A DNA stretch of 29,339 nucleotides from a virus. Lineage: Duplodnaviria; Heunggongvirae; Uroviricota; Caudoviricetes. Positions 4,950 to 29,339 of this stretch are shown piece after piece (positions within the stretch are counted from its first letter, which is position 1; every line of letters starts with the position of its first letter). The DNA is taken from positions 1-29,339 of the IMG/VR virus record IMGVR_UViG_2558860274_000008; one strand, written 5' to 3'. The translations under genes and the position numbers were made by a program. The notes under the pieces were generated by a model, which saw only the letters and a program-made list of their open reading frames with translations, had not been told where the DNA came from and did no database searches.

Positions 4950-4979
4950 GCGTCAATACGGTGCTCCGTTGACGCTTAC

Positions 4980-5004: not shown

Positions 5005-5034
5005 AAATAGTTTATATGCTAAAAATTTAGGGAA

Positions 5035-8274: not shown

Positions 8275-8332
8275 GCGTACTGTCCTTATTGCCGCTTAAC
8301 CAGAGAGCGGGCTGTACACCCGCATAATTATT

Positions 8333-11070: not shown

Positions 11071-11329
11071 TAGCGTAACCTTATGAAGGGGGAAGATGGC
11101 CCTATTTTGCCTTAAAGTTCCGCTTGTTACGAGCTTATACAGCGATTAATTATTATCTGGTTTTAGTGTGTTCGTGTAGCTCAGCAAGTGCAATGACTCA
11201 TGGAGTAAATGCTTTGTAGCGGGATTGTAGATGTCAGGTCATTGCCGTCAATGGAGCCAGTGTCATTGGCATAATTGCTGCACAGCCGATGCCACGCGCA
11301 CATTCGCTAGTTCACTGTGGTTCATCGTG

Positions 11330-11552
11330 TGTACTACACCAGTACGCAGTCCGGGAAGTAACGGCATGGCAGAATCGTTTGTAAAGACGTTCAAGCGGGA
11401 TTATGTGTACGTAGATGATCTGCTGGATGCAGTCTAAATGATGGAAACAATGGCAGAATAGATAGAGGATTATAATAATCTGCATCCACACAAGGGGTTG
11501 AACATGAAATCGCCACGCGAATATCGTGATGCCATATTAGCAGTTAATTAGC
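11330..11552 (+). pseudogene. IS3-family-like DDE transposase/integrase-core C-terminal remnant with in-frame stops
   Basis: Translation ...SNGMAESFVKTFKRDYVY..DLLDAV*..MAE*IEDYNNLHPHKGLNMKSPREY resembles the C-terminal end of an rve-type transposase, interrupted by two stop codons. No N-terminal part is present. Confidence 0.6.
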
Positions 11553-14455: not shown

Positions 14456-16001
14456 ATAGTTCCCTCACTTTCATGCGAGTAATAATTTGTAGAAGTTTAT
14501 CAAGATTATCAAATCTATAGAGATCTAATCGAATGTTGTTTGTTTCCGTCATGCACATTTTATTATATTCGTTTTCAATCTTTGGTATGATATAAAAATC
14601 AAGAGGTGAAATATTTTGTGAATTCATTCGTATAACAATTGTTATGTCTGCTTTCTGTGAGTTATCAAACCGGACTTTCCATCTAAGTTTACCTGATTTC
14701 ATATGTATGCATTTAGTAACAAGGACGGAAATTAAAAACTCATCATTGATGTAAAGCATTGGGGCATATTTATACTCGTCTATATGACAGTTACTTTTTA
14801 AAATTTCACCCTTAAAATCCTCAATTATCTCTGAGTAAAATGATCTTAGTGCTTCATTTATTTTGAGATAGCTGTAATCATGTTCTGGCTTATAACCAAT
14901 CAAAGTATATGCTCTTAAAAGACCACCAAATCGGGTTCTATAAACAGAAGATGAAGGGCCTGTATCATCTTCATCAATGATAAAGCCTGATAGTTTTCCA
15001 TTAGATTCTAATTTTTGTTTTAGTTTTTCTAATAGATCTTCATTAGTCAAATGAATGGATCGGAGCTGAATTATTTCTTGAGCTTTATTGTATTTTTTCT
15101 TTGAAATAATAGGTTTATATGCCTTGTCACATCTAACCCATTCATGTTTGGGGTTTTTTACAAGCCTACTTTTTAATTTAGATGAGGTTTTGTTATATAT
15201 GTTGTTTCCAATATATTTTTCATTTGTCAAAATTTGATGTATTTTTGCACGAGTCCATAATGTTCCATTTTCTGCAGGTATGTTCTGTTCATTTAATCTC
15301 TCAGCAATAATGAATTCTGGGACGTTATTATCTATAAAGAGATCATATATTCTATTTACAATTTTTATTTCATTTTTTGGTCCCGGAATTAATATTACCC
15401 TATCTGTTTGAATACTCTTTCTTTTGCGGAAACTCAATATTTCTTTAGCTATGCCATTTTCGTCTACTAAAAGACGTCTCAGCCCATAACCAGCCATACC
15501 GCCTTGATGATAACCAAGCTTTATTAAATTTACTTGCCCTATAAATACCTTTTCAGATAGATTCCTGCTGTGATATGCAGCACTAGATCTTTTTATATTC
15601 AGTATAACAGAGGACTCTAAAGGGAAATCTTTAGTGGGTATAGGTTCGGAACAATATATAAGATCTACACCATTTCTCTCAAATAGAAAGGAATAATATG
15701 CCGCTTCATCACTATTTTGAAAACGACCAAAACGGCTCACATCATAAAATAATACAGCCTGTATATCTATTTTCTTTTGTTCTACATCGCTAAGTAACTG
15801 CTGCAAAGAATGCCTGCCTACGATACTGACTCCGCTCTTACCTGCATCATCGTAGGTATAAGCGATTTCCATATTGTTCTTTTCAGCATAATCTTTGATA
15901 TATTCGGACTGATTATGTAAAGAATATTGCTGATGGTCGGTAGACATCCTCAAGTACTGCGCGACCCTAACTCTATGATTTTTGTCATTTTCGCTAGCCA
16001 T
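14445..16001 (-). CDS. Large serine recombinase (resolvase/invertase-type catalytic domain plus recombinase domain)
   Basis: 518-aa ORF whose N-terminus (VAQYLRMSTDHQ...YDDAGKSG...LQQLL...DVSRFGR) matches the serine-recombinase catalytic-domain pattern, followed by a long C-terminal extension typical of large serine recombinases. AT-rich, with an SD before the ATG. Confidence 0.85.
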   Translation of the reverse strand: MASENDKNHRVRVAQYLRMSTDHQQYSLHNQSEYIKDYAEKNNMEIAYTYDDAGKSGVSIVGRHSLQQLLSDVEQKKIDIQAVLFYDVSRFGRFQNSDEAAYYSFLFERNGVDLIYCSEPIPTKDFPLESSVILNIKRSSAAYHSRNLSEKVFIGQVNLIKLGYHQGGMAGYGLRRLLVDENGIAKEILSFRKRKSIQTDRVILIPGPKNEIKIVNRIYDLFIDNNVPEFIIAERLNEQNIPAENGTLWTRAKIHQILTNEKYIGNNIYNKTSSKLKSRLVKNPKHEWVRCDKAYKPIISKKKYNKAQEIIQLRSIHLTNEDLLEKLKQKLESNGKLSGFIIDEDDTGPSSSVYRTRFGGLLRAYTLIGYKPEHDYSYLKINEALRSFYSEIIEDFKGEILKSNCHIDEYKYAPMLYINDEFLISVLVTKCIHMKSGKLRWKVRFDNSQKADITIVIRMNSQNISPLDFYIIPKIENEYNKMCMTETNNIRLDLYRFDNLDKLLQIITRMKVRELYAA

Positions 16002-16170
16002 GCACGAAACCTCATGGATGATTCAATACAATGTAGTGGATAAAATTGATCAAATTTCAACCGAATTCAACTGTTTTATCATTGATTAGAGCGAATTTGG
16101 TAGATCTTCGAGGTGTATGATAATCGAGAAGAGATGTGAATTATTTAGCTGATATGACCGACAGCTTTCG

Positions 16171-16220
16171 TTATGTGGACTCAATGTCCCCATTTGTAAA
16201 TGGCTATGCTTAGTCCACAT
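16171..16220. promoter_or_regulatory. Nested dyad-symmetric site upstream of the serine recombinase operon
   Basis: Perfect 10-bp inverted repeat TATGTGGACT (16171-16180) / AGTCCACATA (16211-16220) enclosing an inner near-palindrome CCATTT-GT-AAATGG. No T-tract, so unlikely to be a terminator. Confidence 0.5.
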
Positions 16221-16283
16221 AGGTTAATGGTGTGATTATTAATTCTTTAACTAAATCAAGATAGTTAATCCATCATGGGAGAG

Positions 16284-17513
16284 TTATGCGGCAATAACTT
16301 TGCATTTTTGAGACGAAACATAGTCACTCCACCATTGCATGAGAACCACCCGTTCAGTGAGATACTCTGCACGATTGTAGGCTGCAATTATTTCATCTTT
16401 CTTCGAGTGGGCAAGGGCGGCTTCTAAGACATCAGTCCTAAACTTGCCAGACTCCTCAGCAGCCGTTCTAGCAATGGATCGCATACCGTGAGCTACAAGC
16501 TCACCTCCGAAACCCATACGGATTATGGCCGCATTAGCTGTTTGTTCATGCATGTGATTGAGTGGAGCTTTGATACTGGGGAACACCCACTCTCTATGCC
16601 CGCTGATGACTTTCATTAAATCCAAAACTCGCAAAGCTTCTTTGCTCAGTGGAACTTTGTGAGGCTTCTTCATTTTCATAAACTCCGCCGGGATGTTCCA
16701 CATGCCAGTTTCAATATCAATATCTGACCATCTTGTGCGAACAGCTTCACCTGGGCGAACCCATGTGAGAAGTTGCCACTCAATCAGTAGCCTTGTTTCC
16801 AAACGGATAGAAGCATTGTTTAGAGCAACCAAGAAGCGAGGGAGTTCGGAAGGGGGTAATGCTGGCATATTCTGTTTTTTTGGCTTGCTGAACCGTTGCC
16901 CCAGGTTGTCTGCCGGGTTGAATTCTATGAGTTCTTCTGTTGCTGCATAGCGGAAAATTTCATTCAGGCGGGATATGATGCGGCGAAGTGTTTCAAGGAC
17001 ACCTCGTTTTTCTATGGGTTCTAAATGCTGTTTAAGCATTTTAGGGCGAATCTCCTTAATTGGGGTATCACCCAATGTGGAAAAGATATTTCTCTCTAGG
17101 CTTCGCCAGATGTCGTTAGCATGATCTTGGGAGATGCCTGACGTTTTGACTTTCTCATCAAGCCACTTCTTGGCTACTGCTTGAAATGTATGTTCCGTGG
17201 CATCTTTCAGTGCATTGGCTTTTTGGTTGTTATGAACTTGGGGGTCTATACCATTTGTAAGCAACGACAAGTATTCATCACGTAAAGCTCGTGCCTTCGC
17301 AAGTGTAAGGTGAGGATAGGTTCCTAAGCTCACCTTAGTTCGCTTTTTGGTCACAGGCACTGCATATCTGAAATACCAATTTTTCTTCCCTCCCTTCGCC
17401 AGGGGAGCGATTCGCAACAGCAAACCATCGCCGTCAAAAAGGTTCACCTCTTTTTCGGCAGGTTTGGTGCTTTTGATTTCAGTGTCAGTGAGCTTCTTAG
17501 CGATTTTGGCCAT
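16284..17513 (-). CDS. int: P4-type tyrosine integrase
   Basis: Start placed at the internal Met (MAKIAKKLTDTEIK...), which has a GAGGG SD 8 nt upstream. C-terminal region has the tyrosine-recombinase R...H..R..Y pattern (AHGMRSIARTAA...AYNRAEYL). Sits next to a degenerate ssrA 3'-end repeat. Confidence 0.88.
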   Translation of the reverse strand: MAKIAKKLTDTEIKSTKPAEKEVNLFDGDGLLLRIAPLAKGGKKNWYFRYAVPVTKKRTKVSLGTYPHLTLAKARALRDEYLSLLTNGIDPQVHNNQKANALKDATEHTFQAVAKKWLDEKVKTSGISQDHANDIWRSLERNIFSTLGDTPIKEIRPKMLKQHLEPIEKRGVLETLRRIISRLNEIFRYAATEELIEFNPADNLGQRFSKPKKQNMPALPPSELPRFLVALNNASIRLETRLLIEWQLLTWVRPGEAVRTRWSDIDIETGMWNIPAEFMKMKKPHKVPLSKEALRVLDLMKVISGHREWVFPSIKAPLNHMHEQTANAAIIRMGFGGELVAHGMRSIARTAAEESGKFRTDVLEAALAHSKKDEIIAAYNRAEYLTERVVLMQWWSDYVSSQKCKVIAA

Positions 17514-17611
17514 GTTTGGGACCCTCGATTTTAGGACCCATCTTCGTGGGTCCCATTCAGGGTGCCATAACTCGTAGTTCTCAGCAATTCTCACTAGACT
17601 ACAATAGACGT

Positions 17612-17644
17612 AAAAAAGCCCGCAGAGCTTGTGCTGTGCGGGCT
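17612..17644 (-). terminator. Rho-independent terminator-like hairpin (minus strand) between the degenerate att repeat and int
   Basis: GCCCGCACAGCACAAGCTCTGCGGGC followed by a T-run on the minus strand. Nearly identical to the hairpin at 22175-22207. Confidence 0.6.
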
Positions 17645-17679
17645 TAGTAGACTTTACTGAACTTCAGTACATCAATATT

Positions 17680-17701
17680 TGGTGGGCTGGCGGAGTTTGA
17701 A
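17680..17701. repeat. Degenerate copy of the ssrA 3' end (oldest att remnant)
   Basis: TGGTGGGCTGGCGGAGTTTGAA versus TGGTGGAGCTGGCGGGAGTTGAACC at 22243 and 28280. Same position relative to the terminator hairpin and integrase as the copy at 22243. Confidence 0.6.
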
Positions 17702-17845
17702 TAAATATCGTATTGCTTTGATTTTTAATGGTTTTGTTTAATTCAGTTTTTGTGCGTATACCTAATCGTATACCAATGGCTGTAAGTTAATGTGAAATGA
17801 AAGCGCATTTTTACTTGGATTGATGCTATATCGTACAGGAAAAAA

Positions 17846-18140
17846 TTTTTTTTTCGAAAGAACTGTTCACACTGTTCATCTTTCTGTTTTCTCCTTTTAT
17901 TTCAGTTGGATAGGTGGTGAATAATGGGTGAAGGGTGAACATTCGATTCTTCACCTCCGGCATTCTGCCGGTGTGACTTGTGCAGGGGATTAATCCTCCG
18001 CACTGAAATCACACAGGGAGAAAAAAGTTTTTTTTGATTTGATTGTTCACACTGTTCACCTTTCATTTTTCTCTTTTAATTTCAGTGTGATAACGGGTGA
18101 ATACACGGTGAAGGGTGAACAGTGGATTGTTCACCTTCGG
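17846..18140. repeat. P4 crr-like region: two direct repeats of about 115 bp, each carrying TGTTCAC(C)/GGTGAA(CA) iterons
   Basis: Unit 1 about 17846-17960 and unit 2 about 18026-18140 are near-identical. Each contains ..TGTTCACACTGTTCA.. and GGTGAA..GGTGAAGGGTGAACA..TTCACC. Confidence 0.65.
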
Positions 18141-18153
18141 GGAATTCAGGGAT

Positions 18154-18178
18154 AAAAAAAGACCGGCAGATGCCGGTC
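18154..18178 (-). terminator. Rho-independent terminator (minus strand) downstream of the alpha fragment
   Basis: Perfect hairpin GACCGGCA-GA-TGCCGGTC followed by a run of seven T on the minus strand. Confidence 0.6.
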
Positions 18179-18194
18179 AGATGAGTCATGAGGG

Positions 18195-18422
18195 TCAGGT
18201 TGTTGCAGGGTCGTCACATTTTGGCAGCCAGTCGCCGTAGCTTTCCTCTTTCAGCGTCAGGTTGGTCTGTATCCCCTGTTTGGTATGGCGCTTCTCGTAA
18301 TTCAGTCCGTATTCCTTCAGCATCACCGGCAGCCCCAGCCCGAACATTTTCAGACTGAGTACATTCCGGTAGCCGTTTGCCTCCATGTAGGCCAGATAAA
18401 GGCCTTGCACTGTCAAGAACAT
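18195..18422 (-). pseudogene. C-terminal fragment of a P4 alpha-type primase
   Basis: 75 codons (..GLYLAYMEANGYRNVLSLKMFGLGLPVMLKEYGLNYEKRHTKQG..) resembling the C-terminal tail of P4-family primases. No upstream catalytic domains. Confidence 0.5.
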
Positions 18423-18436
18423 CGCGGCGTCTGTCT

Positions 18437-18628
18437 CAGGAAGTCACCGAGCGTTTTTATGTGTGCACGGATCCGGGCTGTGGTCTGGTGTTTAAAACGC
18501 TTCAGACCATCAACCGTTTCATTGTCCGCCCGGTCACGCCGGACGAACTGGCAGAACGCCTGCATGAAAAACAGGAACTGCCGCCAGTACGCTTAAAAAC
18601 ACAATCATATTCGCTGCGTCTGGAATGA
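18437..18628 (+). pseudogene. C-terminal fragment of a Delta/Ogr-family zinc-finger activator
   Basis: ..ERFYVCTDPGCGLVFKTLQTINRFIVRPV.. parallels the second half of the intact Ogr in this window (..RYCQCQNINCGSTFVTHETVVRFIVTP..). The first Cys pair is missing. Confidence 0.55.
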
Positions 18629-18701
18629 GGGCTGCCGGTTAACACCGGCCGTCGCCGCACACCGTATTTTTATTCTTCAGCATGATGAGAAAGAGATAAC
18701 G

Positions 18702-19274
18702 ATGGAAAGCACAGCCTTACAGCAGGCCTTTGACACCTGTCAGAATAACAAAGCAGCATGGCTGCAACGCAAAAATGAGCTGGCAGCGGCCGAACAGGAA
18801 TACCTGCGGCTTCTGTCAGGAGAAGGCAGAAACGTCAGTCGCCTGGACGAATTACGCAATATTATCGAAGTCAGAAAATGGCAGGTGAATCAGGCCGCCG
18901 GTCGTTATATTCGTTCGCATGAAGCCGTTCAGCACATCAGCATCCGCGACCGGCTGAATGATTTTATGCAGCAGCACGGCACAGCACTGGCGGCGGCACT
19001 GGCACCGGAGCTGATGGGCTACAGTGAGCTGACGGCCATTGCCCGAAACTGTGCCATACAGCGTGCCACAGATGCCCTGCGTGAAGCCCTTCTGTCTTGG
19101 CTTGCGAAGGGTGAAAAAATTAATTATTCCGTACAGGATAGCGACATTTTAACGGCCATCGGATTCAGGCCTGACGCGGCTTCGGTGGATGACAGCCGTG
19201 AAAAATTCACTCCTGCGCAGAACATGATTTTTTCGCGTAAAAGTGCGCAACTGGCATCACGTCAGTCTGTGTAA
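18702..19274 (+). CDS. psu: P4 Psu-like protein (polarity suppression / capsid decoration)
   Basis: 190-aa ORF that is recognisably Psu-like from memory. Sits between the delta remnant and cos, as in P4. Confidence 0.8.
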   Translation: MESTALQQAFDTCQNNKAAWLQRKNELAAAEQEYLRLLSGEGRNVSRLDELRNIIEVRKWQVNQAAGRYIRSHEAVQHISIRDRLNDFMQQHGTALAAALAPELMGYSELTAIARNCAIQRATDALREALLSWLAKGEKINYSVQDSDILTAIGFRPDAASVDDSREKFTPAQNMIFSRKSAQLASRQSV

Positions 19275-19310
19275 AATTCCCCGAAAATCCGCCCGTTTTT
19301 ACTGAAAAAA

Positions 19311-19350
19311 GCCATGCATCGATAAGGTGCATGGCTTTGCATGCGTTTTC
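19311..19350 (+). terminator. Terminator-like hairpin after psu
   Basis: GCCATGCA-tcgataagg-TGCATGGC followed by TTTGCATGCGTTTTC. Confidence 0.5.
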
Positions 19351-19438
19351 ACGTCTCATTTTCTGTATACCAGGCCACGCCCGGCACGGCCTGAGCGTGT
19401 CAGTGCAACTGCATTAAAACCGCTCCGCAAAGCGGGCG

Positions 19439-19457
19439 GGCGAGGCGGGGAAAGCAC
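19439..19457. other. P2/P4-type cos site (19-nt cohesive-end sequence)
   Basis: GGCGAGGCGGGGAAAGCAC, matching the cohesive-end sequence I recall for P2/P4, in the expected position after psu. Confidence 0.75.
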
Positions 19458-19710
19458 TGCGCGCCGGGCTAAAGAATGGAAAATCTTTTCCTTGTACTGA
19501 GCATGCTTGTTGAAAACAGGTTAATAGGCCTCTCGGAGTATTGAATTGCGAGTTTTACTACAACTCTTGATGCTAATATATTGATTGTCTTAAAATAATT
19601 ACTGGCAATGAGGCTCGAAGTCAATGTTGCTATTTTTATTATGGATACGTTGAATACACAGAGTGGTCGCCTTCTTGTTATGCGATTAACTTTCAATTTA
19701 GGGGGGGAGA

Positions 19711-20592
19711 ATGGATTGGAATGTTTTTTTTAGTACTATTAGCCAGACGTCAGGTGCAATTGTCGGAATATTTTCAGCATTTCTAATAACTAAGATAATA
19801 TCTAATCAGTCTGATTTTTCAAGAATGAAGGAACGAGTGTCCTTTCTTATTAATAAGTCTAAAGCCTTGAGTTTAGAAGCGAACTCCAGATATTTTGATT
19901 GGTATAATAGACGAACGCGAGAGCGAGAATTGGATAAGTTAAAGGGTATGTTTGATGAAAGTGATGAGTTTTTATCCGCAGAGGAATATTATGAGAGGCT
20001 TGATTTTTCGCCGTTTGAATTAAGAGATGATGTCTTGGTGTACATACGCAATGCTATTGAGGCGCGTAAAGAGGAAGAAAAAAGACAGATAGGTTATTAC
20101 GGGATTATGCCCACTTTAAGAATGCCTGTAAGTATCTTGAGTAATGATGTCCAGGAAGAGTTCGAACTCATTGATGCTCTCAAAGTTAGGATTCTAGCAA
20201 ATATAAATGACATTATTTATGTTCATGACGAGATTGTAAAAGAAAAGTATGGTAAAAATCTGATAACAATCTCGATTGTTGCATCATCCCTTTTATTTAT
20301 ATTGGGCGTTATTTATCCGCTTAGTTTTATCCCTAAAGCTATTGGTGAAGATATTAACATTACTTTTATGGCATTTTTTGATGTTTTGTTTTCTATTAAA
20401 GGTTTTTTTCTTTCTTTGCTTGCCATTGTTTTTTTGAGTTTGATGTTAGCATTTCTATATATTAACATAACACTGCGATTTGAGAGTGAGGTAATATCAG
20501 AACTTGAATTCTATATGAATATAAGTGCCTATTCTGAATACTTTGGAAACGAGTATAAAAATAGTGTCCATTTAAAAGAGATGTCCGTGTAA
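19711..20592 (+). CDS. Hypothetical membrane protein (N-terminal TM helix, about 150-aa soluble region, two C-terminal TM segments); cargo in the P4-like cos-to-int slot
   Basis: 293-aa AT-rich ORF with a G-rich SD directly upstream. Hydrophobic segments at about residues 5-28, 187-208 and 217-250. No recognisable catalytic motif. Confidence 0.7.
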   Translation: MDWNVFFSTISQTSGAIVGIFSAFLITKIISNQSDFSRMKERVSFLINKSKALSLEANSRYFDWYNRRTRERELDKLKGMFDESDEFLSAEEYYERLDFSPFELRDDVLVYIRNAIEARKEEEKRQIGYYGIMPTLRMPVSILSNDVQEEFELIDALKVRILANINDIIYVHDEIVKEKYGKNLITISIVASSLLFILGVIYPLSFIPKAIGEDINITFMAFFDVLFSIKGFFLSLLAIVFLSLMLAFLYINITLRFESEVISELEFYMNISAYSEYFGNEYKNSVHLKEMSV

Positions 20593-20645
20593 TGAATTTA
20601 TTGAGGCCATTTCTTGGCCTCAATAAATGCTAAAGAGAGACGATT

Positions 20646-20819
20646 TTAAGGTATTTTTATTCCAACCTTAAACTCTTCGTTGTCTCTGAATTTTTCAAGT
20701 GATTCTCGTAAATAGATAGTTTGAATATCTGTGGGGATGAATTTTATCGCCATTCCGTCAAGGCATGTTTTTATATATTTACTAACGTCTTCAATATATT
20801 GATGGTGGTTATTTGACAT
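20646..20819 (-). CDS. Small hypothetical protein (57 aa) immediately downstream of int
   Basis: Not in the ORF track (below length cutoff). ATG preceded by AAGGAG at a 6-nt spacing. Convergent with the 293-aa gene. Confidence 0.4.
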   Translation of the reverse strand: MSNNHHQYIEDVSKYIKTCLDGMAIKFIPTDIQTIYLRESLEKFRDNEEFKVGIKIP

Positions 20820-20846
20820 TTAAAACTCCTTTGCCGTGCAATCTTT

Positions 20847-22058
20847 TTAAATCGCTTGCATGAGGAGGTGGCGATTGTGCACAAATTCCCCCCACCAATT
20901 CATCAAGTCTATACGTTGTTCTAGGTAAGTTGAACGATTGTATGCTCTGCGAACTTCATTTTTATCACTGTGAGCAAGTGCCGCTTCAATTACGTCCGGA
21001 TTAAAACCAGCTTCATTTAGCGCGGTACTTGCTATAGAACGTAATCCATGAGCAACAAGCTTCCCACCATAACCAATGCGCTTAAGTGCAGCATTAGCAG
21101 TCTGGCTATTCATTGGTTGTTTAGGATCATTCCTACTTGGAAAAATATGTTCACGATGAGCACTGATTGGCTTCATCACTTCCAGAATCTCTAATGCCTG
21201 AGAAGACAGTGGGACAATATGCTTGCGTTTCGCCTTCATCCGTTCGGCTGGAATCGTCCAGAACTTTGAATCGAGATCGATCTCTGCCCACCGAGCACCG
21301 GAGGCCTCAGAAGGGCGCACAATGGTCAGGAGTTGCCATTCAATTAGACAGCGAGTCGGAACAGACAGATTAGACATAACCAAAGAACGCATCAGCTTTG
21401 GTAATTCTTCTGGCCGGAGCGTCGGCATGTTTTGCTTTTTAGGTTTCTCAAAAGCCATCCCAATACCTGATGCTGGATTGGCATCAATCAGACCAGTGTT
21501 TACGGCATAAATCATTATCTCGTTAATGCGCTGCACCAGACGACGTACCGTCTCTAGCGCCCCACGTGCTTTGATTGGCTCAAGGGCTTCAACAAGTGTT
21601 CGGGCTTTGATTTGCTGAACTGGGATCTCACCGATGGCAGGGAATACATCTTTTTCTAGTGAACGCCAAATGTCTTTCGCGTAATCAGGGGTAACGCTTT
21701 TGCTTTTAAGCTGGAACCAGTTAGCGGCGACTGTTGAAAAAATACTGTCCAGTGCGATTTGCTGCTGTTCCTCTGCAATTTCAGCTTGAATTTGCGGGTC
21801 AATTCCGTTGGCTAACAAGGAAAGGTAATCCGCTCTTAACCGTCGGGCGTCAGCAAGTGAAAGGGCGGGGAAGGCTCCTAGCCCCATCATTGTTCGCTGC
21901 TTTGTTGCTGGACGTTGATAACGGAAACGCCATAACTTCTTACCGTTCGTTTTAACGAGCAGAAAAAGACCATCGCCATCATGCAACGTTAGATCCTTTT
22001 CTAACGCTTTAGCGCGCAGAACTTCTGTGTTGGTCAGGGGGCGTGTCGTTCTTGCCAC
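20847..22058 (-). CDS. int: P4-type tyrosine integrase
   Basis: 403-aa ORF with a GTG start preceded by GAAGGAG. N-terminus MARTTRPLTNTEV...DGDGLFLLV and a tyrosine-recombinase C-terminal pattern. Adjacent to the ssrA 3'-end repeat. Confidence 0.9.
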   Translation of the reverse strand: MARTTRPLTNTEVLRAKALEKDLTLHDGDGLFLLVKTNGKKLWRFRYQRPATKQRTMMGLGAFPALSLADARRLRADYLSLLANGIDPQIQAEIAEEQQQIALDSIFSTVAANWFQLKSKSVTPDYAKDIWRSLEKDVFPAIGEIPVQQIKARTLVEALEPIKARGALETVRRLVQRINEIMIYAVNTGLIDANPASGIGMAFEKPKKQNMPTLRPEELPKLMRSLVMSNLSVPTRCLIEWQLLTIVRPSEASGARWAEIDLDSKFWTIPAERMKAKRKHIVPLSSQALEILEVMKPISAHREHIFPSRNDPKQPMNSQTANAALKRIGYGGKLVAHGLRSIASTALNEAGFNPDVIEAALAHSDKNEVRRAYNRSTYLEQRIDLMNWWGEFVHNRHLLMQAI

Positions 22059-22080
22059 TTTGGCCGCTCCTTCATGAATT

Positions 22081-22128
22081 GGTATACGCGTTTAGGTATA
22101 CATCCTACCGTATACCTAAACGTATACC
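22081..22128. promoter_or_regulatory. Inverted repeat in the int upstream region
   Basis: GGTATACGCGTTTAGGTATAC (22081-22101) and GTATACCTAAACGTATACC (22110-22128) are near-perfect reverse complements. Confidence 0.45.
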
Positions 22129-22174
22129 AATAATCACTGGATTTAGCTGGATATCCTCGGACAACGGTAGACAC

Positions 22175-22207
22175 AAAAAAGCCCGCAGAGCTTGTGCCAT
22201 GCGGGCT
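22175..22207 (-). terminator. Rho-independent terminator (minus strand) just downstream of the ssrA 3'-end repeat
   Basis: AGCCCGCATGGCACAAGCTCTGCGGGCT followed by TTTTTTG on the minus strand. Confidence 0.65.
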
Positions 22208-22242
22208 TTCAGGATTTCTCCGGACGTATCCGGAAGAGCAAG

Positions 22243-22287
22243 TGGTGGAGCTGGCGGGAGTTGAACCCGCGTCCGAAATTCCTACAT
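22243..22287. repeat. Direct repeat of the ssrA 3' end (att core) between the P2-like and P4-like remnants
   Basis: 45-bp exact match to 28280-28324 (TGGTGGAGCTGGCGGGAGTTGAACCCGCGTCCGAAATTCCTACAT). Confidence 0.9.
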
Positions 22288-22411
22288 ACCATTTTTACTA
22301 TAATAAAAACAGTTATTTATTTTTTAAATCAGTATGTTAGTGTTATTTGGTGTTTCTCCGTTTTATGTGTTTTTAATGTTCTGCCGCCAAAGTGTCGCCA
22401 CTATTGCTGGC

Positions 22412-23599
22412 CTATCTAATAGGTGAATAATCAAATAAGCGATCCATACAAACTTCCAGTTTATAAAAGTCAGTTAATGGGTAAAGTCTGATTATGTCAC
22501 TATCAAAATCAGTAATGCCAGATAGCCTTTCTTTTCGAGCAAGAAATCTGATAGCTTTCCCCTGCTCAGATGTTTTAGGGATTGCATTCTGATACTCTAA
22601 TGTTTTTAAAACCTGCCATGAAACAGGTGGAGTAAAATCAAATAATGATGACAACCTTGGGCAAAAATCTTTTTGAGTCGTTTGTCTATATGTGGCTTTG
22701 GGGGGTAATACAACATTTATTGAAAGTTTTGAACCTAGACTTTTTTTCATTTTCGTTGATGAATAGGCTATGCCAGATATTGGAGATTGACCCCGTGTGC
22801 TTATCCACTGCATGAGTAAATTAGGTATTATATATTCTTGCGTAAAACTTGAGTTTTCATGTGTTTTTATATAGCTACATGAGAAAATTAAGGGCCAGAG
22901 AACCAAATACGAAGCTTTGATATAATTATTTGTTCTTAACTCTTCGCTGCTCCATTCTTTAGTATTGATTGAGGTTTTCAGTTGTGGAACAAAGTTAAGG
23001 ATTTTAGATTTAGTATCTTGTGATATGAATGAGGATATATATAGTTTATCAAAATCTGGTTTGTCCATTTCTTGCCAGCATACATATAGAGATGAACCTA
23101 GATATAAACAGGGGAGTCCCGCTACTGAGTAACGTTGAGCACTGACAAGGTGTCGGCAGGAAAATGGTATATGGAAAATATCTTCCCTGTTAAGTAATGG
23201 CTTGTCTGATTTGCGTACTCTATAGAGTGGTTGATCATAATTACATATTTCCTTAAGGGGGATTGTGATTCTTTGAATATGCTTATTAATAAGATTGTCT
23301 GAAAAAGTGTCATCGAAAATATCATATGCCTCTTTGATGTCACCCGCTAAAAACTCTTGAAGGCTCTCGGTTATTCCTAGTTGTATTTTTAATACTCGCT
23401 TTATTAGCAGATCAATATTAAGCCTGGTTTTGTTTTTAATTTTAAATTCATTTAAAAAATTAAGGTATTCATTGCAGCGAGAGTTAAAATCAGAAACGAT
23501 GTCACCTTTAGGTTTAAAAGGTGGCATTAAATCCTCATTACTATACAACTCATTCAGCATCATATTTAACTGAGTTTCAACATCTCTATCCTGTTGCAT
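22412..23599 (-). CDS. Hypothetical protein with a RES-domain-like region and an N-terminal extension of about 120 aa
   Basis: 395-aa AT-rich ORF starting 7 nt after the int stop. Segment PLYRVRKS...FHIPFSCRHLVSAQRYSVAGLPCLYLGSSLYVCWQE matches the RES-domain pattern. No adjacent small antitoxin-like ORF. Confidence 0.6.
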   Translation of the reverse strand: MQQDRDVETQLNMMLNELYSNEDLMPPFKPKGDIVSDFNSRCNEYLNFLNEFKIKNKTRLNIDLLIKRVLKIQLGITESLQEFLAGDIKEAYDIFDDTFSDNLINKHIQRITIPLKEICNYDQPLYRVRKSDKPLLNREDIFHIPFSCRHLVSAQRYSVAGLPCLYLGSSLYVCWQEMDKPDFDKLYISSFISQDTKSKILNFVPQLKTSINTKEWSSEELRTNNYIKASYLVLWPLIFSCSYIKTHENSSFTQEYIIPNLLMQWISTRGQSPISGIAYSSTKMKKSLGSKLSINVVLPPKATYRQTTQKDFCPRLSSLFDFTPPVSWQVLKTLEYQNAIPKTSEQGKAIRFLARKERLSGITDFDSDIIRLYPLTDFYKLEVCMDRLFDYSPIR

Positions 23600-23606
23600 T
23601 CTTTTC

Positions 23607-24623
23607 TCACTTTAATAAATTTAGTGGATTTTTAGTCACCGCGTCTTCTAAATGATCTGGAGAAAAATGAGCGTAGATCATCGTCATTTTTATATCCGCA
23701 TGTCCTAGAATATCGCGCAGCACCAGTATGTTTCCGCCATTCATCATAAAGTGGCTGGCAAATGTATGGCGCAGGACGTGGGTGCATTGGCCTTCCGGTA
23801 GTTCGATACCGGCCCGTTTTACCGCCCGTTCAAAGGCTTTTCTGCATGGTGTGAATAACTTCCCTCGTTTTTTGGGGAGTTCGTTGTACAGTTCCTGAGA
23901 AATAGGTACGGTTCGGTTTTTCTTGCCCTTTGTCTTGGTATAAGTTATACGGTATTTTGATAACTGATGACCCTGCAGGTTTTCGGCTTCACTCCAGCGC
24001 GCGCCTGTGGCTAAGCATATTTTTGCAATCAAAAGTAGGCTGGGATTTTGAGAATCAGCACAGGCATTCAGCAAGCGTTTTATTTCTTCCTGTGTCAGAA
24101 ATGCCAGTTCGCCCTCTGCAATTTTAAATGTTGGTAGACCGGCGAGTGGGTTGGGGGCGGACCAGTGGCCTAATTTTTTTAAAGTTCCAAAAACTGATGA
24201 TAGATTGCGTTGTTCAAGGTTTACTGTTCGAGGCTTAACCGGCGACATAAACACACCATCAATGTTTTTAACGTCACCTTTTAGTCGCGCTTCCCGATAC
24301 TTAGTGAAATCACCTGCTGTCAATTCAGAGGCTATGGGATCACCAAGTCCACCACAAATGATTTTTAATTTCGCCATTAAACGCTTGGGGTCAGCGAGAG
24401 TTCGACCATACAGGGAATACCACAGCTCAATTAATTCTGACAGGTGCCGCCGATCATCCTTTTCACCTAACCACGGTTTTTTGTTCACCTCTTCCATAGT
24501 GAAGCTTTCAAACGCAATGGCTTCGCCTTTCGTAGCAAATTGCTTACGTACGCGTTTGCCATTGCGTCCATTGGGATAGCACTCACACAACCATTTACCG
24601 TTTGGCTGTTTTCTGACAGTCAT
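23607..24623 (-). CDS. int: P2-type tyrosine integrase
   Basis: 338-aa ORF (MTVRKQPNGKWLCECYPNG...ICLATGARWSEAE...HVLRHTFASHFMMNGGNILVLRDILGH...MTMIYAHF), directly downstream of the repressor gene as in P2/186. Confidence 0.92.
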   Translation of the reverse strand: MTVRKQPNGKWLCECYPNGRNGKRVRKQFATKGEAIAFESFTMEEVNKKPWLGEKDDRRHLSELIELWYSLYGRTLADPKRLMAKLKIICGGLGDPIASELTAGDFTKYREARLKGDVKNIDGVFMSPVKPRTVNLEQRNLSSVFGTLKKLGHWSAPNPLAGLPTFKIAEGELAFLTQEEIKRLLNACADSQNPSLLLIAKICLATGARWSEAENLQGHQLSKYRITYTKTKGKKNRTVPISQELYNELPKKRGKLFTPCRKAFERAVKRAGIELPEGQCTHVLRHTFASHFMMNGGNILVLRDILGHADIKMTMIYAHFSPDHLEDAVTKNPLNLLK

Positions 24624-24625
24624 GT

Positions 24626-25258
24626 TTAGATACTCTTTATTACTTTGACTGCGCGCCCAATAACTTCCACATCATCAGCAGAGCACTCGAAAGACGCTTC
24701 ATCTTGATTTACTACAATCTTATTGCCGGGAATCCGCATGATTTTTGCAATAATAATCATTCCATCAATATTGATAAGCCAGAATCCATTGCTGACTTGT
24801 TTAACTGATTTATCGATGAGATAACAATCAGTAGGGGTTTCTAAGAACATCGATTCTTCATAATGTGCAGGTAATATGCTGTGGTCTAGAAAAATCTTTT
24901 CATCAATACGGAGTTTTCCATTCTCCAAGGTTCCTTTAGGAATAGATGGAGTTACGAGTTTGGATAACGGTCTAATCGCTAGTTTGTTCTCATTATGAGA
25001 ACTTTTTTCAGGCTCACATTCTTCTTTCATGCTTCCCTGTCCTGTTGCTAACCAAAGCAACGAAACACCAGTTTCTAGTGCGCACTGAATTATCCAGTCA
25101 GCAGGAAAGCTATCACGTAACACTCTGTTTGCCATAGTGCTTTTTGAGACATTCAGATGCTCGCTTAATGCCTGCTTAGTTGTGAATCCATAAGCCTCAA
25201 GCAGCCTCTCAATAGCTGCCTTACCTCCCGTATCGGAACCCATTCTGATGTTTAACAT
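24626..25258 (-). CDS. cI: Phage CI-type repressor (N-terminal HTH)
   Basis: 210-aa ORF with HTH region TKQALSEHLNVSKSTMANRVLRDSFP. Divergent from the cox-like gene, with a strong SD. Confidence 0.8.
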   Translation of the reverse strand: MLNIRMGSDTGGKAAIERLLEAYGFTTKQALSEHLNVSKSTMANRVLRDSFPADWIIQCALETGVSLLWLATGQGSMKEECEPEKSSHNENKLAIRPLSKLVTPSIPKGTLENGKLRIDEKIFLDHSILPAHYEESMFLETPTDCYLIDKSVKQVSNGFWLINIDGMIIIAKIMRIPGNKIVVNQDEASFECSADDVEVIGRAVKVIKSI

Positions 25259-25271
25259 TGGTAATCTCCAT

Positions 25272-25300
25272 TTGACAATCTTGAATCAAGATCGTAATGT
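25272..25300 (+). promoter_or_regulatory. Sigma70-like promoter for the rightward (cox-like) transcript with an embedded operator-like palindrome
   Basis: TTGACA (25272-25277), 17-bp spacer, TAATGT (25295-25300). The spacer contains the perfect palindrome ATCTTGA-A-TCAAGAT (25278-25292). Direct repeat CTAAAACG x2 lies at 25335-25354. Confidence 0.5.
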
Positions 25301-25379
25301 CTTCATGTCTCTTGATGTGAGATTTTAAGAGACGAGCTAAAACGAACTAAAACGCACACAAAGTAAGAGATACTGCACT

Positions 25380-25781
25380 ATGAGCAACGACATTTCAATT
25401 CGTGTACCAAAAGTGATGGCGACCCCTGCAGAGTTCGCGGAATGGGAAGGCCGATCTCGTGGTTCGGTATATCAAATGATTCACAATGGTAAACTTGCTA
25501 AGTTTTTGGAAAAAAAGGAAAAATCGAAAGACAGAGTATGTATACGTTACCTTGAGTACAAAAAGGAACAAGTCAGGAAAAACATGGGCCACCCGATCTA
25601 TTACCACGGTGAGCACCGCCACCGGATTGAGGCACCGACGCAGATCATCATTCAGACGCAGCCAGGACAAAGTGCGCAGGATATTGCGCGGGAGGTGGCA
25701 CGCCAGCTTGATGAACGTGAACGCAGGCTGAAGGCAAAAGCCAGGAGTAACTACAGCGATCAGGGGGGATACGACGCATGA
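25380..25781 (+). CDS. Cox/Apl-like HTH N-terminus continuous with the 3' end of the tail gene preceding U (probable deletion fusion)
   Basis: 133-aa ORF. N-terminus (..ATPAEFAEWEGRSRGSVYQMIHNGKL..) is excisionase/Cox-like. Its stop overlaps the U start (ATGA), as expected for the gene upstream of U in P2 (T). The junction is not precisely located. Confidence 0.5.
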   Translation: MSNDISIRVPKVMATPAEFAEWEGRSRGSVYQMIHNGKLAKFLEKKEKSKDRVCIRYLEYKKEQVRKNMGHPIYYHGEHRHRIEAPTQIIIQTQPGQSAQDIAREVARQLDERERRLKAKARSNYSDQGGYDA

Positions 25782-26263
25782 TGATGGTGCTGGGATTGTA
25801 CGTGTTTATGCTGCGCACCGTTCCGTATCAGGAACTGCAGTATCAACGCAGCTGGCGACATGCGGCAAACAGCCGGGTAAACCGTCGTCCGTCCACGCAG
25901 TTTCTGGGACCGGACAACGACATGCTGACGCTTTCTGGTGTTCTTATGCCGGAGATAACGGGCGGCAGGCTGTCGTTGCTGGCTCTGGAGCAGATGGCAG
26001 AACAGGGAAAAGCATGGCCCCTGATTGAAGGCAGCGGCACGATTTACGGCATGTATGTGATTGAGGGACTGAATCTGACTAAAACGGAGTTTTTCCGCGA
26101 CGGTATGCCGCGCCGGATTGAGTTCACCCTGTCGCTCAAACGGGTGGATGAATCCCTGTCCGATATGTTCGGTGATCTCAGTACGCAACTGAATAATCTG
26201 CAGGACACGGCAACATCTGCCTTAAGTGATATCAGTAAAACGGTGGGAGGGCTGCTGTCGTGA
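25778..26263 (+). CDS. U: P2 gpU-like tail protein
   Basis: 161-aa ORF (MMMVLGLYVFMLRTVPYQELQYQRSWRH...LGPDNDMLTLSGVL...) recognisable as P2 U from memory. Confidence 0.9.
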   Translation: MMMVLGLYVFMLRTVPYQELQYQRSWRHAANSRVNRRPSTQFLGPDNDMLTLSGVLMPEITGGRLSLLALEQMAEQGKAWPLIEGSGTIYGMYVIEGLNLTKTEFFRDGMPRRIEFTLSLKRVDESLSDMFGDLSTQLNNLQDTATSALSDISKTVGGLLS

Positions 26264-27360
26264 ATTTCAGCTCTGAACTGCTTAACAAAGGCAACAAAAC
26301 TCCCGCATTCAGCATCAGTATTGAGGGCAGGGATATCACCACTGTGCTGGATAACCGCCTGATGAGTTTGACTCTGACGGACAATCGGGGCTTTGAAGCG
26401 GACCAGCTTGATCTGGAGCTGGACGACGCCGACGGAAAAATCGTGCTGCCGCGCCGTGGTGCGGTCATTACGCTGGCGCTGGGCTGGAAGGGGCAGCCGC
26501 TTTTCCCTAAAGGGGCATTCACGGTGGACGAGATTGAACACACTGGCGCACCGGACCGCCTGACTATCCGGGCGCGAAGTGCTGATTTTCGGGAAACGCT
26601 GAATACCCGTCGTGAAAAGTCGTGGCACAAGACCACCGTCGGGGAAGTGGTGAAGGAAATAGCCGCGCGGCACAAGCTGAAGATGGCACTGGGTAAAGAC
26701 CTGTCGGATAAGCCCGTGGAACATATAGACCAGACCAATGAGAGTGACGGCAGTTTTCTGATGCGGCTGGCGCGCCAGTACGGTGCTATTGCGTCGGTGA
26801 AAAACGGCAATCTGTTATTCATCCGGCAGGGACAGGGCAAAAGCGCCAGCGGTAAACCTCTGCCGGTGATCACTATCACACGCAAGGACGGCGACAGTCA
26901 CCGCTTTACCCTGGCAGATCGCGGAGCCTATACGGGCGTAATTGCCAGTTGGTTGCATACCCGCGAACCCGCGAAGAAAGAAAGCACCACGGTGAAGCGT
27001 AAGTGCAGGACAGCAAAGCAGAAGAAAGAGCCGGAAGCGAAGCAGGGCGATTACCTGGTGGGTACGGATGAAAACGTGCTGGTACTTAATCGCACTTATG
27101 CCAACCGGAGCAACGCTGAACGGGCAGCGAAAATGCAGTGGGAACGCCTGCAACGCGGCGTTGCGTCATTCTCGCTACAACTGGCGGAAGGTCGGGCAGA
27201 TCTCTACACGGAAATGCCAGTGAAAGTCAGTGGCTTTAAACAGCCGATAGATGATGCGGAATGGACCATTACGACTCTGACACATACCGTCAGCCCGGAT
27301 AACGGTTTTACAACCAGTATTGAACTCGAAGTGAAGATTGATGATCTTGAAATGGAATGA
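26260..27360 (+). CDS. D: P2 gpD-like tail protein (late control gene D)
   Basis: 366-aa ORF overlapping the U stop. Gene order U-D-ogr. Confidence 0.9.
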   Translation: MNFSSELLNKGNKTPAFSISIEGRDITTVLDNRLMSLTLTDNRGFEADQLDLELDDADGKIVLPRRGAVITLALGWKGQPLFPKGAFTVDEIEHTGAPDRLTIRARSADFRETLNTRREKSWHKTTVGEVVKEIAARHKLKMALGKDLSDKPVEHIDQTNESDGSFLMRLARQYGAIASVKNGNLLFIRQGQGKSASGKPLPVITITRKDGDSHRFTLADRGAYTGVIASWLHTREPAKKESTTVKRKCRTAKQKKEPEAKQGDYLVGTDENVLVLNRTYANRSNAERAAKMQWERLQRGVASFSLQLAEGRADLYTEMPVKVSGFKQPIDDAEWTITTLTHTVSPDNGFTTSIELEVKIDDLEME

Positions 27361-27428
27361 ATTGTTCTCAATATTGATATTTTGTGTATCATTACAATGA
27401 TTCTGATAGCAAAGGTAGGGATCTGGAT

Positions 27429-27647
27429 ATGATGAATTGTCCGAAGTGTGGTCATGCGGCGCACACAAGGAGCAGTTTTCAAGTAACAGAAAGCACCAAA
27501 GAGCGTTACTGCCAGTGCCAAAATATTAACTGCGGGAGCACTTTTGTTACCCATGAAACAGTGGTCCGGTTTATTGTGACACCTGCATTGATTGCTACAG
27601 CCCCTCCACATCCATTGCCAGGTGGTCAGGGGCATATGAATTTTTGA
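27429..27647 (+). CDS. ogr: Ogr-type late transcription activator (zinc finger)
   Basis: 72-aa product from the internal Met (MMNCPKCGHAAHTRSS...ERYCQCQNINCGSTF...PHPLPGGQ) with a C-x2-C...C-x4-C pattern and P2 Ogr length. Confidence 0.9.
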   Translation: MMNCPKCGHAAHTRSSFQVTESTKERYCQCQNINCGSTFVTHETVVRFIVTPALIATAPPHPLPGGQGHMNF

Positions 27648-27652
27648 GAAAG

Positions 27653-27678
27653 AGAACCTGCTACGGCAGGTTTTTATT
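27653..27678. terminator. Bidirectional terminator hairpin between convergent ogr and the WYL/BRCT-like gene
   Basis: AACCTGC-tacg-GCAGGTT followed by TTTTTATT. Confidence 0.65.
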
Positions 27679-28156
27679 CATCTGGGATCTCACCCGTTTC
27701 AAGAAAATGTATAAAGCCAGGCTCATCTATGATGATTGTGCCTTTCATCCTGGCTGCCGATACTTTTGATGGGCCTGCATTGTAACCGCAACAGAGCATC
27801 TGAAGGCTTTGGGTTACAGAGGTTCTTACCGTTAATCCTTGTTCATTCGCCTTATCAACCAATCTTTCTTTATCTGCTTTCTTAAATCCGGTGAAGCACA
27901 CATCGAATGTATTTTTTTTCGGACCAGACTGCTTAGTGAGATGTGAGTAGTTTTCGGGGAGGAATGACGCGCATTCCTGAATGGCTTGTTCTGGTGAATC
28001 GTACTGTTTAAGAATGCGGTCTTTTCGGAAGGTTTTTATTCGATCGGTGTTCTTACAAATGCCCTGTATATGATTTTCGCTATAACTGATGCTCTGTATT
28101 GAGTGAACACCGATACGACCATTTGCATTGATGTAAACAAAGTGAAGTTCTTCCAT
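27674..28156 (-). CDS. Hypothetical protein with a WYL-like N-terminal region and BRCT-like C-terminal region; cargo between ogr and ssrA
   Basis: 160-aa ORF with AGAGG SD. N-terminal ..RIKTFRKDRI.. resembles the WYL-domain R.FR.DRI signature. C-terminal DVCFTGF....ERL...A...G..V...V......L..G...G.SK...A.....IIDE..F resembles a BRCT fold pattern. Confidence 0.55.
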   Translation of the reverse strand: MEELHFVYINANGRIGVHSIQSISYSENHIQGICKNTDRIKTFRKDRILKQYDSPEQAIQECASFLPENYSHLTKQSGPKKNTFDVCFTGFKKADKERLVDKANEQGLTVRTSVTQSLQMLCCGYNAGPSKVSAARMKGTIIIDEPGFIHFLETGEIPDE

Positions 28157-28182
28157 GTGAAACCTCTTTGCATGATTTCAAG

Positions 28183-28221
28183 ATGGCGACAGGCAAGATG
28201 GACGCAAAAGTCTGTCGCCAT
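28183..28221. promoter_or_regulatory. Perfect 10-bp inverted repeat upstream of the WYL/BRCT-like gene
   Basis: ATGGCGACAG (28183-28192) and CTGTCGCCAT (28212-28221), 19-bp spacer, between the ssrA terminator and the gene start. Confidence 0.5.
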
Positions 28222-28236
28222 TTTGCCGCCACTATC

Positions 28237-28270
28237 AAAGAAAAAGGGGCTACGCTTTCACGTAACCCCT
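28237..28270 (-). terminator. Rho-independent terminator of ssrA (minus strand)
   Basis: AGGGGTTACGTGAAAGCGTAGCCCCT followed by TTTTTCTTT on the minus strand, immediately 3' of the tmRNA CCA end. Confidence 0.7.
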
Positions 28271-28279
28271 TGATTTATT

Positions 28280-28642
28280 TGGTGGAGCTGGCGGGAGTTG
28301 AACCCGCGTCCGAAATTCCTACATCCTCGGTACTACATGCTTAGTCAGTCTTTACATTCGCTTGCCAGCTGCGGACGGACACGCCACTAACAAACTAGCC
28401 TGATTAAGTTTTAACGCTTCAACCCCAGGCAGGGCTTCCACGCGATCTCTTTTGGGTTTGACCTCTCTTGATCCCCGTCCTAAGAGCGGAGGCTAGGGAG
28501 AGAGGGCTCTAAGCAGGTTATTAAGCTGCTAAAGCGTAGTTTTCGTCGTTTGCGACTATTTTTTGCGGCTTTTTACGAGGCCAACCGCCCCTCGGCATGC
28601 ACCTTGGGTTTCGCAAATCCCGTCGAATCCAGAATCAGCCCC
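28280..28642 (-). ncRNA. ssrA: tmRNA (SsrA), 363 nt
   Basis: Reverse complement reads GGGGCTGATTCTGGATTCGACGGG...GCAAACGACGAAAACTACGCTTTAGCAGCTTAA (ANDENYALAA tag)...GGTTCAACTCCCGCCAGCTCCACCA, matching enterobacterial ssrA as I recall it. Confidence 0.95.
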
Positions 28643-28856: not shown

Positions 28857-29339
28857 TTAACGATGGGCGTTCTTCATGATACGCGCTTTATCCACCTGCC
28901 ATTCGCGCTCTTTGATATCAGAACGTTTATCGTGTTGTTTCTTACCTTTGGCGACGCCGATTTTTACTTTGCACCAGGCATTTTTCCAGTACAAGGAGAG
29001 CGCCACTACGGTATAGCCTTCGCGGTTTACGCGACCATAGAGAGAATCCAGTTCACGCTGGTTGAGAAGTAATTTGCGGGTACGAGTTGGATCGCACACT
29101 ACATGTGTGGAAGCCACAGCCATTGGCGTAATGTTAGCGCCAAACAGGAATGCTTCACCGTCGCGCAGAAGGACATAGCTGTCGCTAATATTGGCTTTTC
29201 CTGCGCGCAGGGATTTAACTTCCCAGCCTTGCAGGGCAAGTCCCGCTTCGAATTCTTCTTCGATAAAGTATTCGTGACGGGCGCGCTTGTTAAGCGCGAT
29301 GGTCGCTGAACCAGGTTTATGTGCTTTTTTCTTCGTCAT
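28857..29339 (-). CDS. smpB: SsrA-binding protein SmpB
   Basis: 160-aa ORF ([48 protein letters not shown]...) upstream of ssrA on the same strand. Start codon is at the window edge. Confidence 0.93.

Follow-up and report, generated by a model that had tools for sequence, protein, structure and literature searches.

Does a degenerate copy of a gene's 3′ end record how long ago an element integrated there, or which integrase made the junction? The question is raised by the transfer-messenger RNA (tmRNA) gene ssrA in the 29,339-nucleotide viral record IMGVR_UViG_2558860274_000008, analysed over its whole length and referred to below as the window, where the end of the gene is found again twice, once exactly and once in degenerate form. 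A sequence-only reading of the window had attributed these repeats to three tandem integrations with progressively decayed attachment-site (att) copies. The window very probably holds three integrative elements, termed A, B and C with increasing distance from ssrA, in a tandem array at the 3′ end of this gene on an Escherichia albertii chromosome, built stepwise from C through B to A. As judged from the junction sequences, the state of a copy reflects the integrase that made the junction and not its age.

Results

Three elements in tandem at the 3′ end of ssrA

The ssrA gene (28280–28642, minus strand) is intact, as called by ARAGORN and by the Rfam model RF00023 (295.8 bits), and is 100% identical to that of Escherichia coli K-12; tmRNA was the sole match in an Rfam scan of the window. 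Upstream of it lies the core gene smpB (28857–29339, minus strand; Pfam SmpB, 1.5e-57). For both smpB and the spacer between the two genes, identity is 98.8% with E. albertii NBRC 107761 and about 92% with E. coli. Positions 1–18274 match CP007025.1 (locus L179) at 100.000%, so the window is assigned to that chromosome. In the E. albertii type strain the site is empty and the ssrA end joins the native flank …CCGTCCAATCACGAT.

The last 45 bp of ssrA (28280–28324, minus strand), which are the identity block of element A and its attL, are found again without a mismatch at 22243–22287 on the same strand, a match equalled by none of the dinucleotide shuffles. This displaced 3′ end is both attR of A and attL of B, with the terminator and integrase of B leftward of it. 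The degenerate copy, attR of B at 17680–17701 (minus strand; TGGTGGGCTGGCGGAGTTTGAA), aligns with the ssrA end with three single-base indels and has a local alignment score of 30, against a null maximum of 22.7 ± 2.2. One of 40 shuffles also reaches 30, which makes the copy marginal by similarity alone and is what could be said for regarding it as a chance resemblance, with only two elements then defined by repeats, a possibility that the sequence-only reading had itself raised. It is accepted as a true ssrA copy because of its position at a shared flank and not because of its alignment score. It adjoins the flank …CATCAATATT, next to which the copy in E. coli FG31-1 is a perfect 45 bp and which in E. 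albertii relatives joins the live ssrA 3′ end. The repeat also recurs at 31 P4-like junctions, and the copy in K-12 is annotated as the pseudogene psaA. The homologous position in relatives rules a chance resemblance out, its probability being vanishingly small.

With an intact ssrA and two displaced 3′ fragments on the same strand (22243–22287 and 17680–17701), the locus has the form by which Islander defines an island at a tRNA or tmRNA gene (tDNA). A tyrosine integrase gene lies within each interval, at 23607–24623 in A, 20847–22058 in B and 16284–17513 in C. A and B each have a distal tDNA fragment of their own; for C there is none in the window or in the 5 kb beyond its left edge, no further ssrA fragment rising above noise in positions 1–17000 or within 5 kb past the left edge in CP007025.1.

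On the minus strand a hairpin comes after each internal copy, and then an integrase gene with the Arm-DNA-bind_3, Phage_int_M and Phage_integrase architecture. The hairpin from B, of the conserved IntA type (22177–22210, minus strand; −22.6 kcal/mol, z −4.4), aligns with the terminator between ssrA and intA in K-12, and that from C (17616–17645, minus strand; −20.4 kcal/mol, z −7.0) stands directly 3′ of the live ssrA in two relatives, L180 and L181. The two differ in a few loop and edge bases, are both followed by a U tract and both match the K-12 hairpin, so that the earlier description of each internal copy as followed by a near-identical terminator and a P4-type integrase is borne out by the hairpin energies, the Pfam domains and the NCBIfam model NF007246. 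The terminator that serves the live ssrA (28244–28271, minus strand; −19.8 kcal/mol, z −6.0, then a U tract) is supplied by A and is unlike those of B and C.

The A-type terminator is also present in the attP of the free phage Cartapus, which reads as an exonuclease-like gene, the terminator, the same 45 bp and then ACCATTTTTACTATAA…, that is, as both ends of A joined. Since both lie in this attP, the 45-bp block and the terminator of A are phage-borne. A tyrosine integrase would have recombined the attP of each element of the array with the ssrA 3′ end, and each element would have brought a replacement 3′ end and a Rho-independent terminator of its own, by which ssrA would be kept intact; at each integration the earlier 3′ end, together with its terminator, would have been displaced away from the gene.

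The state of a distal copy follows the integrase type

The copy at 17680–17701 can be divided into two parts. Positions 17680–17693, reading TGGTGG-GCTGGCGG, are the displaced ssrA end, comprising a 15-bp block less a single base; the missing base is U357 of the tmRNA (ΔU357), three bases ahead of the discriminator. The remaining positions, 17694–17701, are the arm of B. To place these parts, distal junctions of P4-like elements were collected from 29 IMG/VR contigs and from E. coli comparators. The element-side arm GGCGGAGTTTGAATAAATAT is invariant at the 29 P4-like junctions, next to five kinds of flank (native, CP4-57-type, C-type, variants of C, and Fels-2-type). Because the arm is invariant while the flanks vary, AGTTTGAA (17694–17701) is the arm of B itself and not decayed ssrA.

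A single one of the 29 P4-like junctions is intact (L010, with TGGTGGAGCT). Twelve have the one-base deletion, a missing A, and no other change, and the other 16 have larger deletions that extend into the flank, with the element-side end at or no more than 1–2 bases from A|GCT. Damage is thus seen at 28 of 29 P4-like junctions, compared with 11 of 103 Fels-2-type junctions (Fisher p = 1e-18), the 92 intact ones of the latter occurring with every flank type. The attR of CP4-57 in K-12 (psaA) carries the same lesion as the third copy, and the identical 22-mer is present in Tig228 and nearly so in K-12. In published listings ΔU357 is given for P4-type integrases in E. coli, Shewanella, Vibrio and Salmonella, with the ends of Fels-2 and SopEPhi intact (PMC10107115, Table 1), and the distal-site lesion of P4-type islands at ssrA has also been described elsewhere (PMC4383910).

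That att copies decay progressively with age, the leftmost being degenerate because it is the oldest, agrees with the copy farthest from ssrA being the least similar to it. It does not agree with the perfect 45 bp of the copy next to C in FG31-1 and BE2-5, both with a Fels-2-like neighbour, nor with the same position being the live ssrA end in L180 and L181. Neither would decay by age be expected to give the same 22-mer in Tig228 and almost the same in K-12; moreover, 8 of the 22 bases are P4-like arm, and the lesion tracks the type of integrase rather than the position in the array. Decay with age has very little probability, and progressive decay is the part of the sequence-only reading that does not survive, the lesion being stereotyped.

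About 15% of Fels-2-type distal copies in IMG/VR bear the P4-type lesion, either as the missing A or as a larger deletion with its end at A|GCT or close to it. The lesioned loci include L037, L055, L059, L061, L078, L085, L088 and L096, and five are on the native flank without a P4-type element between. Such copies would be explained either by the earlier excision of a P4-type island or by the entry of the phage into an ssrA that was already damaged. An unlikely but conceivable extension of this is that Fels-2-like phages sometimes repair the tmRNA gene of their host. A P4-type island would excise and leave ssrA with ΔU357 and an inactive tmRNA; a Fels-2-like phage would then integrate, provide a good 3′ end and displace the damaged one. 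Excision of a distal P4-type element after the phage had arrived would give the same pattern, and the evidence does not separate the two. On the same reading, element A in arrays like the present one would protect the live ssrA from what the excision of B leaves behind.

Two integrase types, two subsites

The identity block of A begins 45 nt from the ssrA 3′ end, at the base that opens the anticodon loop (tRNA position 32). That of B is 15 bp long (CCGCCAGCUCCACCA; TGGTGGAGCTGGCGG) and begins in the T stem, on its 3′ strand beside the acceptor stem, 15 nt from the 3′ end. These positions correspond to the A and J subsites (PMC4383910). On excision of CP4-57, ΔT357 is reported as the sole change passed to ssrA, so that the crossover would fall between U357 and the T loop (PMC10107115). 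Because the blocks differ in length (45 and 15 bp), and from the excision product in K-12, the A and B integrases almost certainly act at the same gene end with strand exchange about 30 bp apart. A single crossover site common to both integrase types was considered and rejected, the 45-bp and 15-bp blocks being nested. The earlier proposal that the P2-type and P4-type integrases share the ssrA core consequently holds only loosely, for the gene end, where the blocks are nested, and almost certainly not for the crossover.

Order of acquisition

Relatives with an ssrA–smpB region 100% identical to that of the window are found in the states C, B+C and A+B+C, and together with the empty type strain they form a nested series. 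This series supports the order C, then B, then A, which is the most likely one given the sequences available, and it upholds the earlier proposal of serial integration at one gene end with the newest element nearest ssrA. The step from C to B is well supported. In L180 and L181 ssrA is joined to C, which is 99.95% identical to island C of the window, and its 3′ end is undamaged; they are taken as pre-B states because excision by the B integrase would have left ΔU357. CP070292.2 has ssrA joined to B without A, with matching segments 99.97–100% identical to the window, and the array of A, B and C, with the same deletion scar in A (described below), is present in two metagenome contigs, L156 and L157.

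The P4-like element could instead have entered the internal 45-bp copy at the junction of A and C, giving the order C, A, B. That copy contains the entire 15-bp core and the T-arm sequence, the product would be identical to the observed DNA, and arrays of an A-like element joined to C without B exist in E. coli. Against this, CP070292.2 has B at ssrA without A, so that an extra event, the clean loss of A, would be needed, and no relative was retrieved in which the scarred A is joined directly to C. In L009 and L024 the P4-like element is nearest ssrA, as integration into the live gene predicts, and its distal junction adjoins a Fels-2-type terminator flank; the position in an array is thus not fixed by the type of element. 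Overall, entry of B after A is decidedly unlikely.

Near-identical elements occur in E. coli, C being 99.9% identical to that of FG31-1 (window 11627–17701 against L001) and B 99.3–99.6% identical to the element of STEC17-190 (17683–22287 against L004). With smpB only about 92% identical to E. coli, this points to recent exchange of B and C between the species. The same figures could be read as import of the array, or part of it, from E. coli as a block, by homologous recombination or transduction across ssrA. High identity is, however, to be expected in any case for mobile elements whose integrases carry them from one species to another. The ssrA–smpB flank is E. albertii-like (98.8–100%) right up to the elements, the series C, B+C and A+B+C is found within E. 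albertii with identical flanks, and neither the whole array nor either deletion scar is present in any of 5,426 complete E. coli genomes, an absence attributed to the host being E. albertii. Import as a block is accordingly highly unlikely.

Several points weigh against stepwise assembly from C through B to A as set out here. It is by parsimony that A is placed after B, and CP070292.2 may have lost A cleanly. In principle B may have entered the internal 45-bp copy, which holds its whole core. Island C is delimited on one side only, its attR lying outside the window and the next 5 kb. The attP of B is a reconstruction, as neither INPHARED nor IMG/VR yielded the P4-like element in a free or circular attP form. 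Given near-identical E. coli copies next to core genes of 92% identity, partial transfer of the array by homologous recombination could still have taken place. Finally, that the P4-type integrase itself makes the lesion is inferred from the pattern of junctions.

CP070292.2 also has an 8.2-kb deletion across the junction of B and C (L176/L168; window 11179–19366), which joins the cargo region of the P4-like element to hsdM. It takes psu, the damaged att copy, the C integrase, the serine recombinase and both ParB-like genes, and the outcome is a chimeric island with the integrase of B and the restriction-modification cargo of C.

Element A, a Fels-2-like prophage remnant

The earlier labels of P2-like, P4-like and restriction-modification island agree with the gene content of the three elements, with that of A made more precise. 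Element A (22288–28279) is a Fels-2-like (Peduoviridae) prophage remnant in which about 6 kb of roughly 33 kb is left, and within the P2-like group it is more precisely Fels-2/186-like. Its integrase (23607–24623, minus strand; Pfam Int_N and Phage_integrase) is of the Fels-2/186 type, 91.1% identical to that of Fels-2 and 89% to that of SopEPhi, both known as ssrA integrators (PMC3448106), and its attP core is the ssrA 3′ end. Next to it lies a 186-type CI repressor (24626–25258, minus strand; Pfam Phage_CI_repr and Phage_CI_C). On the plus strand follow an open reading frame (ORF) at 25380–25781, the tail gene gpU (25778–26263; Pfam Phage_P2_GpU, 9.5e-44), the tail/baseplate hub gene gpD (26260–27360; Pfam Phage_GPD) and an ogr-like late activator (27384–27647; Pfam Ogr_Delta, 1.5e-20).

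The ORF at 25380–25781 is a deletion scar, in which the N-terminus of Cox/Apl is fused to the C-terminus of the tape-measure protein with the junction at about 25590–25620. Its PHROG matches are to a Cox-like excisionase over residues 1–70 and to a tape measure over residues 81–133. This cox::T fusion marks a deletion of about 27 kb, and the exact fusion protein is present in 14 other contigs. Complete replication, capsid, tail and lysis modules are lacking, the genes left being int, cI, cox′, ′T, U, D, ogr and two cargo genes; A is a remnant and no functional prophage.

The first of the cargo genes, next to attL (27674–28156, minus strand), encodes 160 residues with weak exonuclease/ligase-like matches (PHROG 2561; a weak DEDDh match) and is in the same position as CARTA_32 of Cartapus, a 'putative exonuclease'. 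The second, between int and attR (22412–23599, minus strand), encodes 395 residues and belongs to PHROG 7835, of unknown function. It is 46% identical to the gene in the same position in Cartapus, a 'putative RES protein, NAD+ binding domain'. In E. coli FG31-1 the slot is occupied by a gene of another length, for a hypothetical protein of 352 residues. Searches of PADLOC, Pfam and NCBIfam with the 395-residue protein gave nothing useful, the sole match above threshold being a spurious Plasmodium domain.

Element B, a decayed P4-like satellite

Element B (17702–22242) is a decayed P4-like satellite, 99.3–99.6% identical to the full P4-like element that sits at ssrA in E. coli STEC17-190, less 5.7 kb. 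The integrase (20847–22058, minus strand) is of the IntA (CP4-57) family (NF007246, 604.9 bits; cutoff 434), with 63% identity to IntA of K-12 CP4-57 and 36% to the integrase of P4. Of the P4 gene set, psu (18702–19274, plus strand) is 98% identical to that of P4, and the cis replication region crr, with the terminator of the alpha gene (17840–18190; terminator at 18161–18178), is 94% identical. The alpha primase is present as a C-terminal fragment (18195–18397, minus strand; PHROG DNA primase, model positions 733–801 of 802) and delta as a 3′ fragment (18398–18596, plus strand; delimited by BLAST breakpoints against L004 and L157), and sid is absent. The deletion junction is at 18397/18398, where the primase C-terminus runs into delta; a search for this junction in species-representative genomes gave no match.

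The relatives L156 and L157 keep sid and a full delta in their P4-like element. Their deletion (4.2 kb) and that of the window (5.7 kb) are nested and share the left breakpoint in the primase gene (window 18397/18398; L157 1488–3018), the larger one additionally taking sid and half of delta. Apart from the deletion, both contigs match the window exactly or almost so, at 100% and 99.6–99.9%.

Between psu and int lies a cargo gene for a helical membrane protein of 293 residues (19711–20592, plus strand), with no family match in Pfam, PHROG, PADLOC or NCBIfam. Homologues, about 130 in number and roughly 300 residues long, come from Aeromonas, Vibrio, Acinetobacter, Klebsiella and Orenia and are conserved at the N-terminus (MDWNxFFS). 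A confident AlphaFold model (pLDDT 86.9, pTM 0.72) is all helical with hydrophobic N- and C-terminal helices, and in a fold search against the PDB it gave no match with E < 0.3. On the basis of the model the gene may be an uncharacterised membrane-acting defence or exclusion gene.

Island C

Running leftward from 17679, island C contains genes for an integrase and a serine recombinase, two ParB-like genes and hsdMSR. The integrase (16284–17513, minus strand; IntA/P4 family, NF007246, 444.6 bits; cutoff 434) is given as 409 residues, as annotated in relatives; the open frame itself reaches 17594. It is 48–50% identical to the B integrase and to IntA of K-12, with 48% for IntA. Immediately behind it, at 12666–16001 on the minus strand, are a large serine recombinase (Pfam Resolvase and Recombinase) and two ParB/RepB-like genes (ParB_N, RepB), an AT-rich module of 33% GC that is kept beside this integrase in E. 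coli and E. albertii. The cargo is a type I restriction-modification system, hsdM, hsdS and hsdR (5035–11070, minus strand; Pfam), which is contiguous with the C integrase in L180 and L181, the relatives with C as their only island.

The 1.6 kb between hsdM and the ParB-like genes (11071–12665) has no ORF of at least 70 residues and no Rfam match; by eye, the translation of a short frame at 11231–11437 resembles the C-terminus of an IS3-family transposase, and in CP130156.1 an IS1 is inserted within this interval. Left of hsdR are two IS66-family elements and an IS1 fragment (1–4949, plus strand; Pfam), and the genes next beyond the window in CP007025.1 are ykgM/ykgO-like paralogues of ribosomal proteins. 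Because these come next, the far boundary of C is probably rearranged.

Discussion

Stacking of mobile elements at ssrA, as seen here, is real, ordinary and already documented, and involves no new mechanism. Every component is known: Fels-2 and SopEPhi at ssrA, CP4-57 and P4-type integrases with their terminator and ΔU357, and tandem arrays at tRNA and tmRNA genes. Arrays are reportedly common at ssrA, a gene that at least four integrase subfamilies are said to use in enterobacteria. One integrase of the P4 subfamily is said to damage its attachment sites routinely, and the conserved sequences of attachment sites reportedly act as terminators for ssrA. With its conservative filters Islander lists 125 arrays of at least two islands and 4 of at least three in 2,168 genomes, and 148 damaged among 3,919 islands; in the IMG/VR sample about 70% of Fels-2-like prophages at ssrA adjoin another island. 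The tandem arrays surveyed by Islander are like the present one in having an intact target and co-oriented 3′ fragments that each come with a separate integrase, in the use of different subsites by the integrase subfamilies and in damage 3 bp upstream of the discriminator; nothing essential differs.

Element A resembles Fels-2, SopEPhi and Cartapus in its integrase (89–91% to those of Fels-2 and SopEPhi) and in its 186-type CI, Ogr, gpD and gpU. With Cartapus it shares the same 45 bp of the ssrA 3′ end as attP core and the same terminator, and with Fels-2 and SopEPhi a distal copy that is left intact, as listed for P2-type integrases (PMC10107115, Table 1). Unlike all three it is a 6-kb remnant, about 27 kb having been lost by the deletion between cox and the tape-measure gene, and its host is E. 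albertii; the cargo gene beside int, moreover, is only 46% identical to that of Cartapus.

Both B and C resemble CP4-57 of K-12 in their target, the ssrA 3′ end, and in the conserved terminator hairpin, with integrases 63% and 48% identical to IntA, respectively, and B in addition in the distal-site lesion (ΔT357 in psaA). However, neither the satellite nor the restriction-modification island has the gene content of CP4-57. A further difference is that the damaged copy here lies inside the array, so that excision of B alone would leave the live ssrA untouched. B is like P4 in psu and crr, in the layout of int, core, crr and alpha and in the cargo slot between psu/cos and int. Unlike P4, its integrase (36% identical) targets ssrA and not tRNA-Leu, and sid, part of delta, the immunity region and most of the primase have been deleted.

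The locus offers a clean worked example of mobile DNA gathering at the tmRNA gene. It also holds candidate defence cargo, in the form of the type I restriction-modification system and two uncharacterised genes in variable slots beside two of the integrase genes. For the reading of such loci more widely, a 'degenerate' distal repeat beside a P4-type integrase is a signature of the integrase family and not a clock, a rule that bears both on the calling of island boundaries and on the dating of acquisitions by the decay of repeats.

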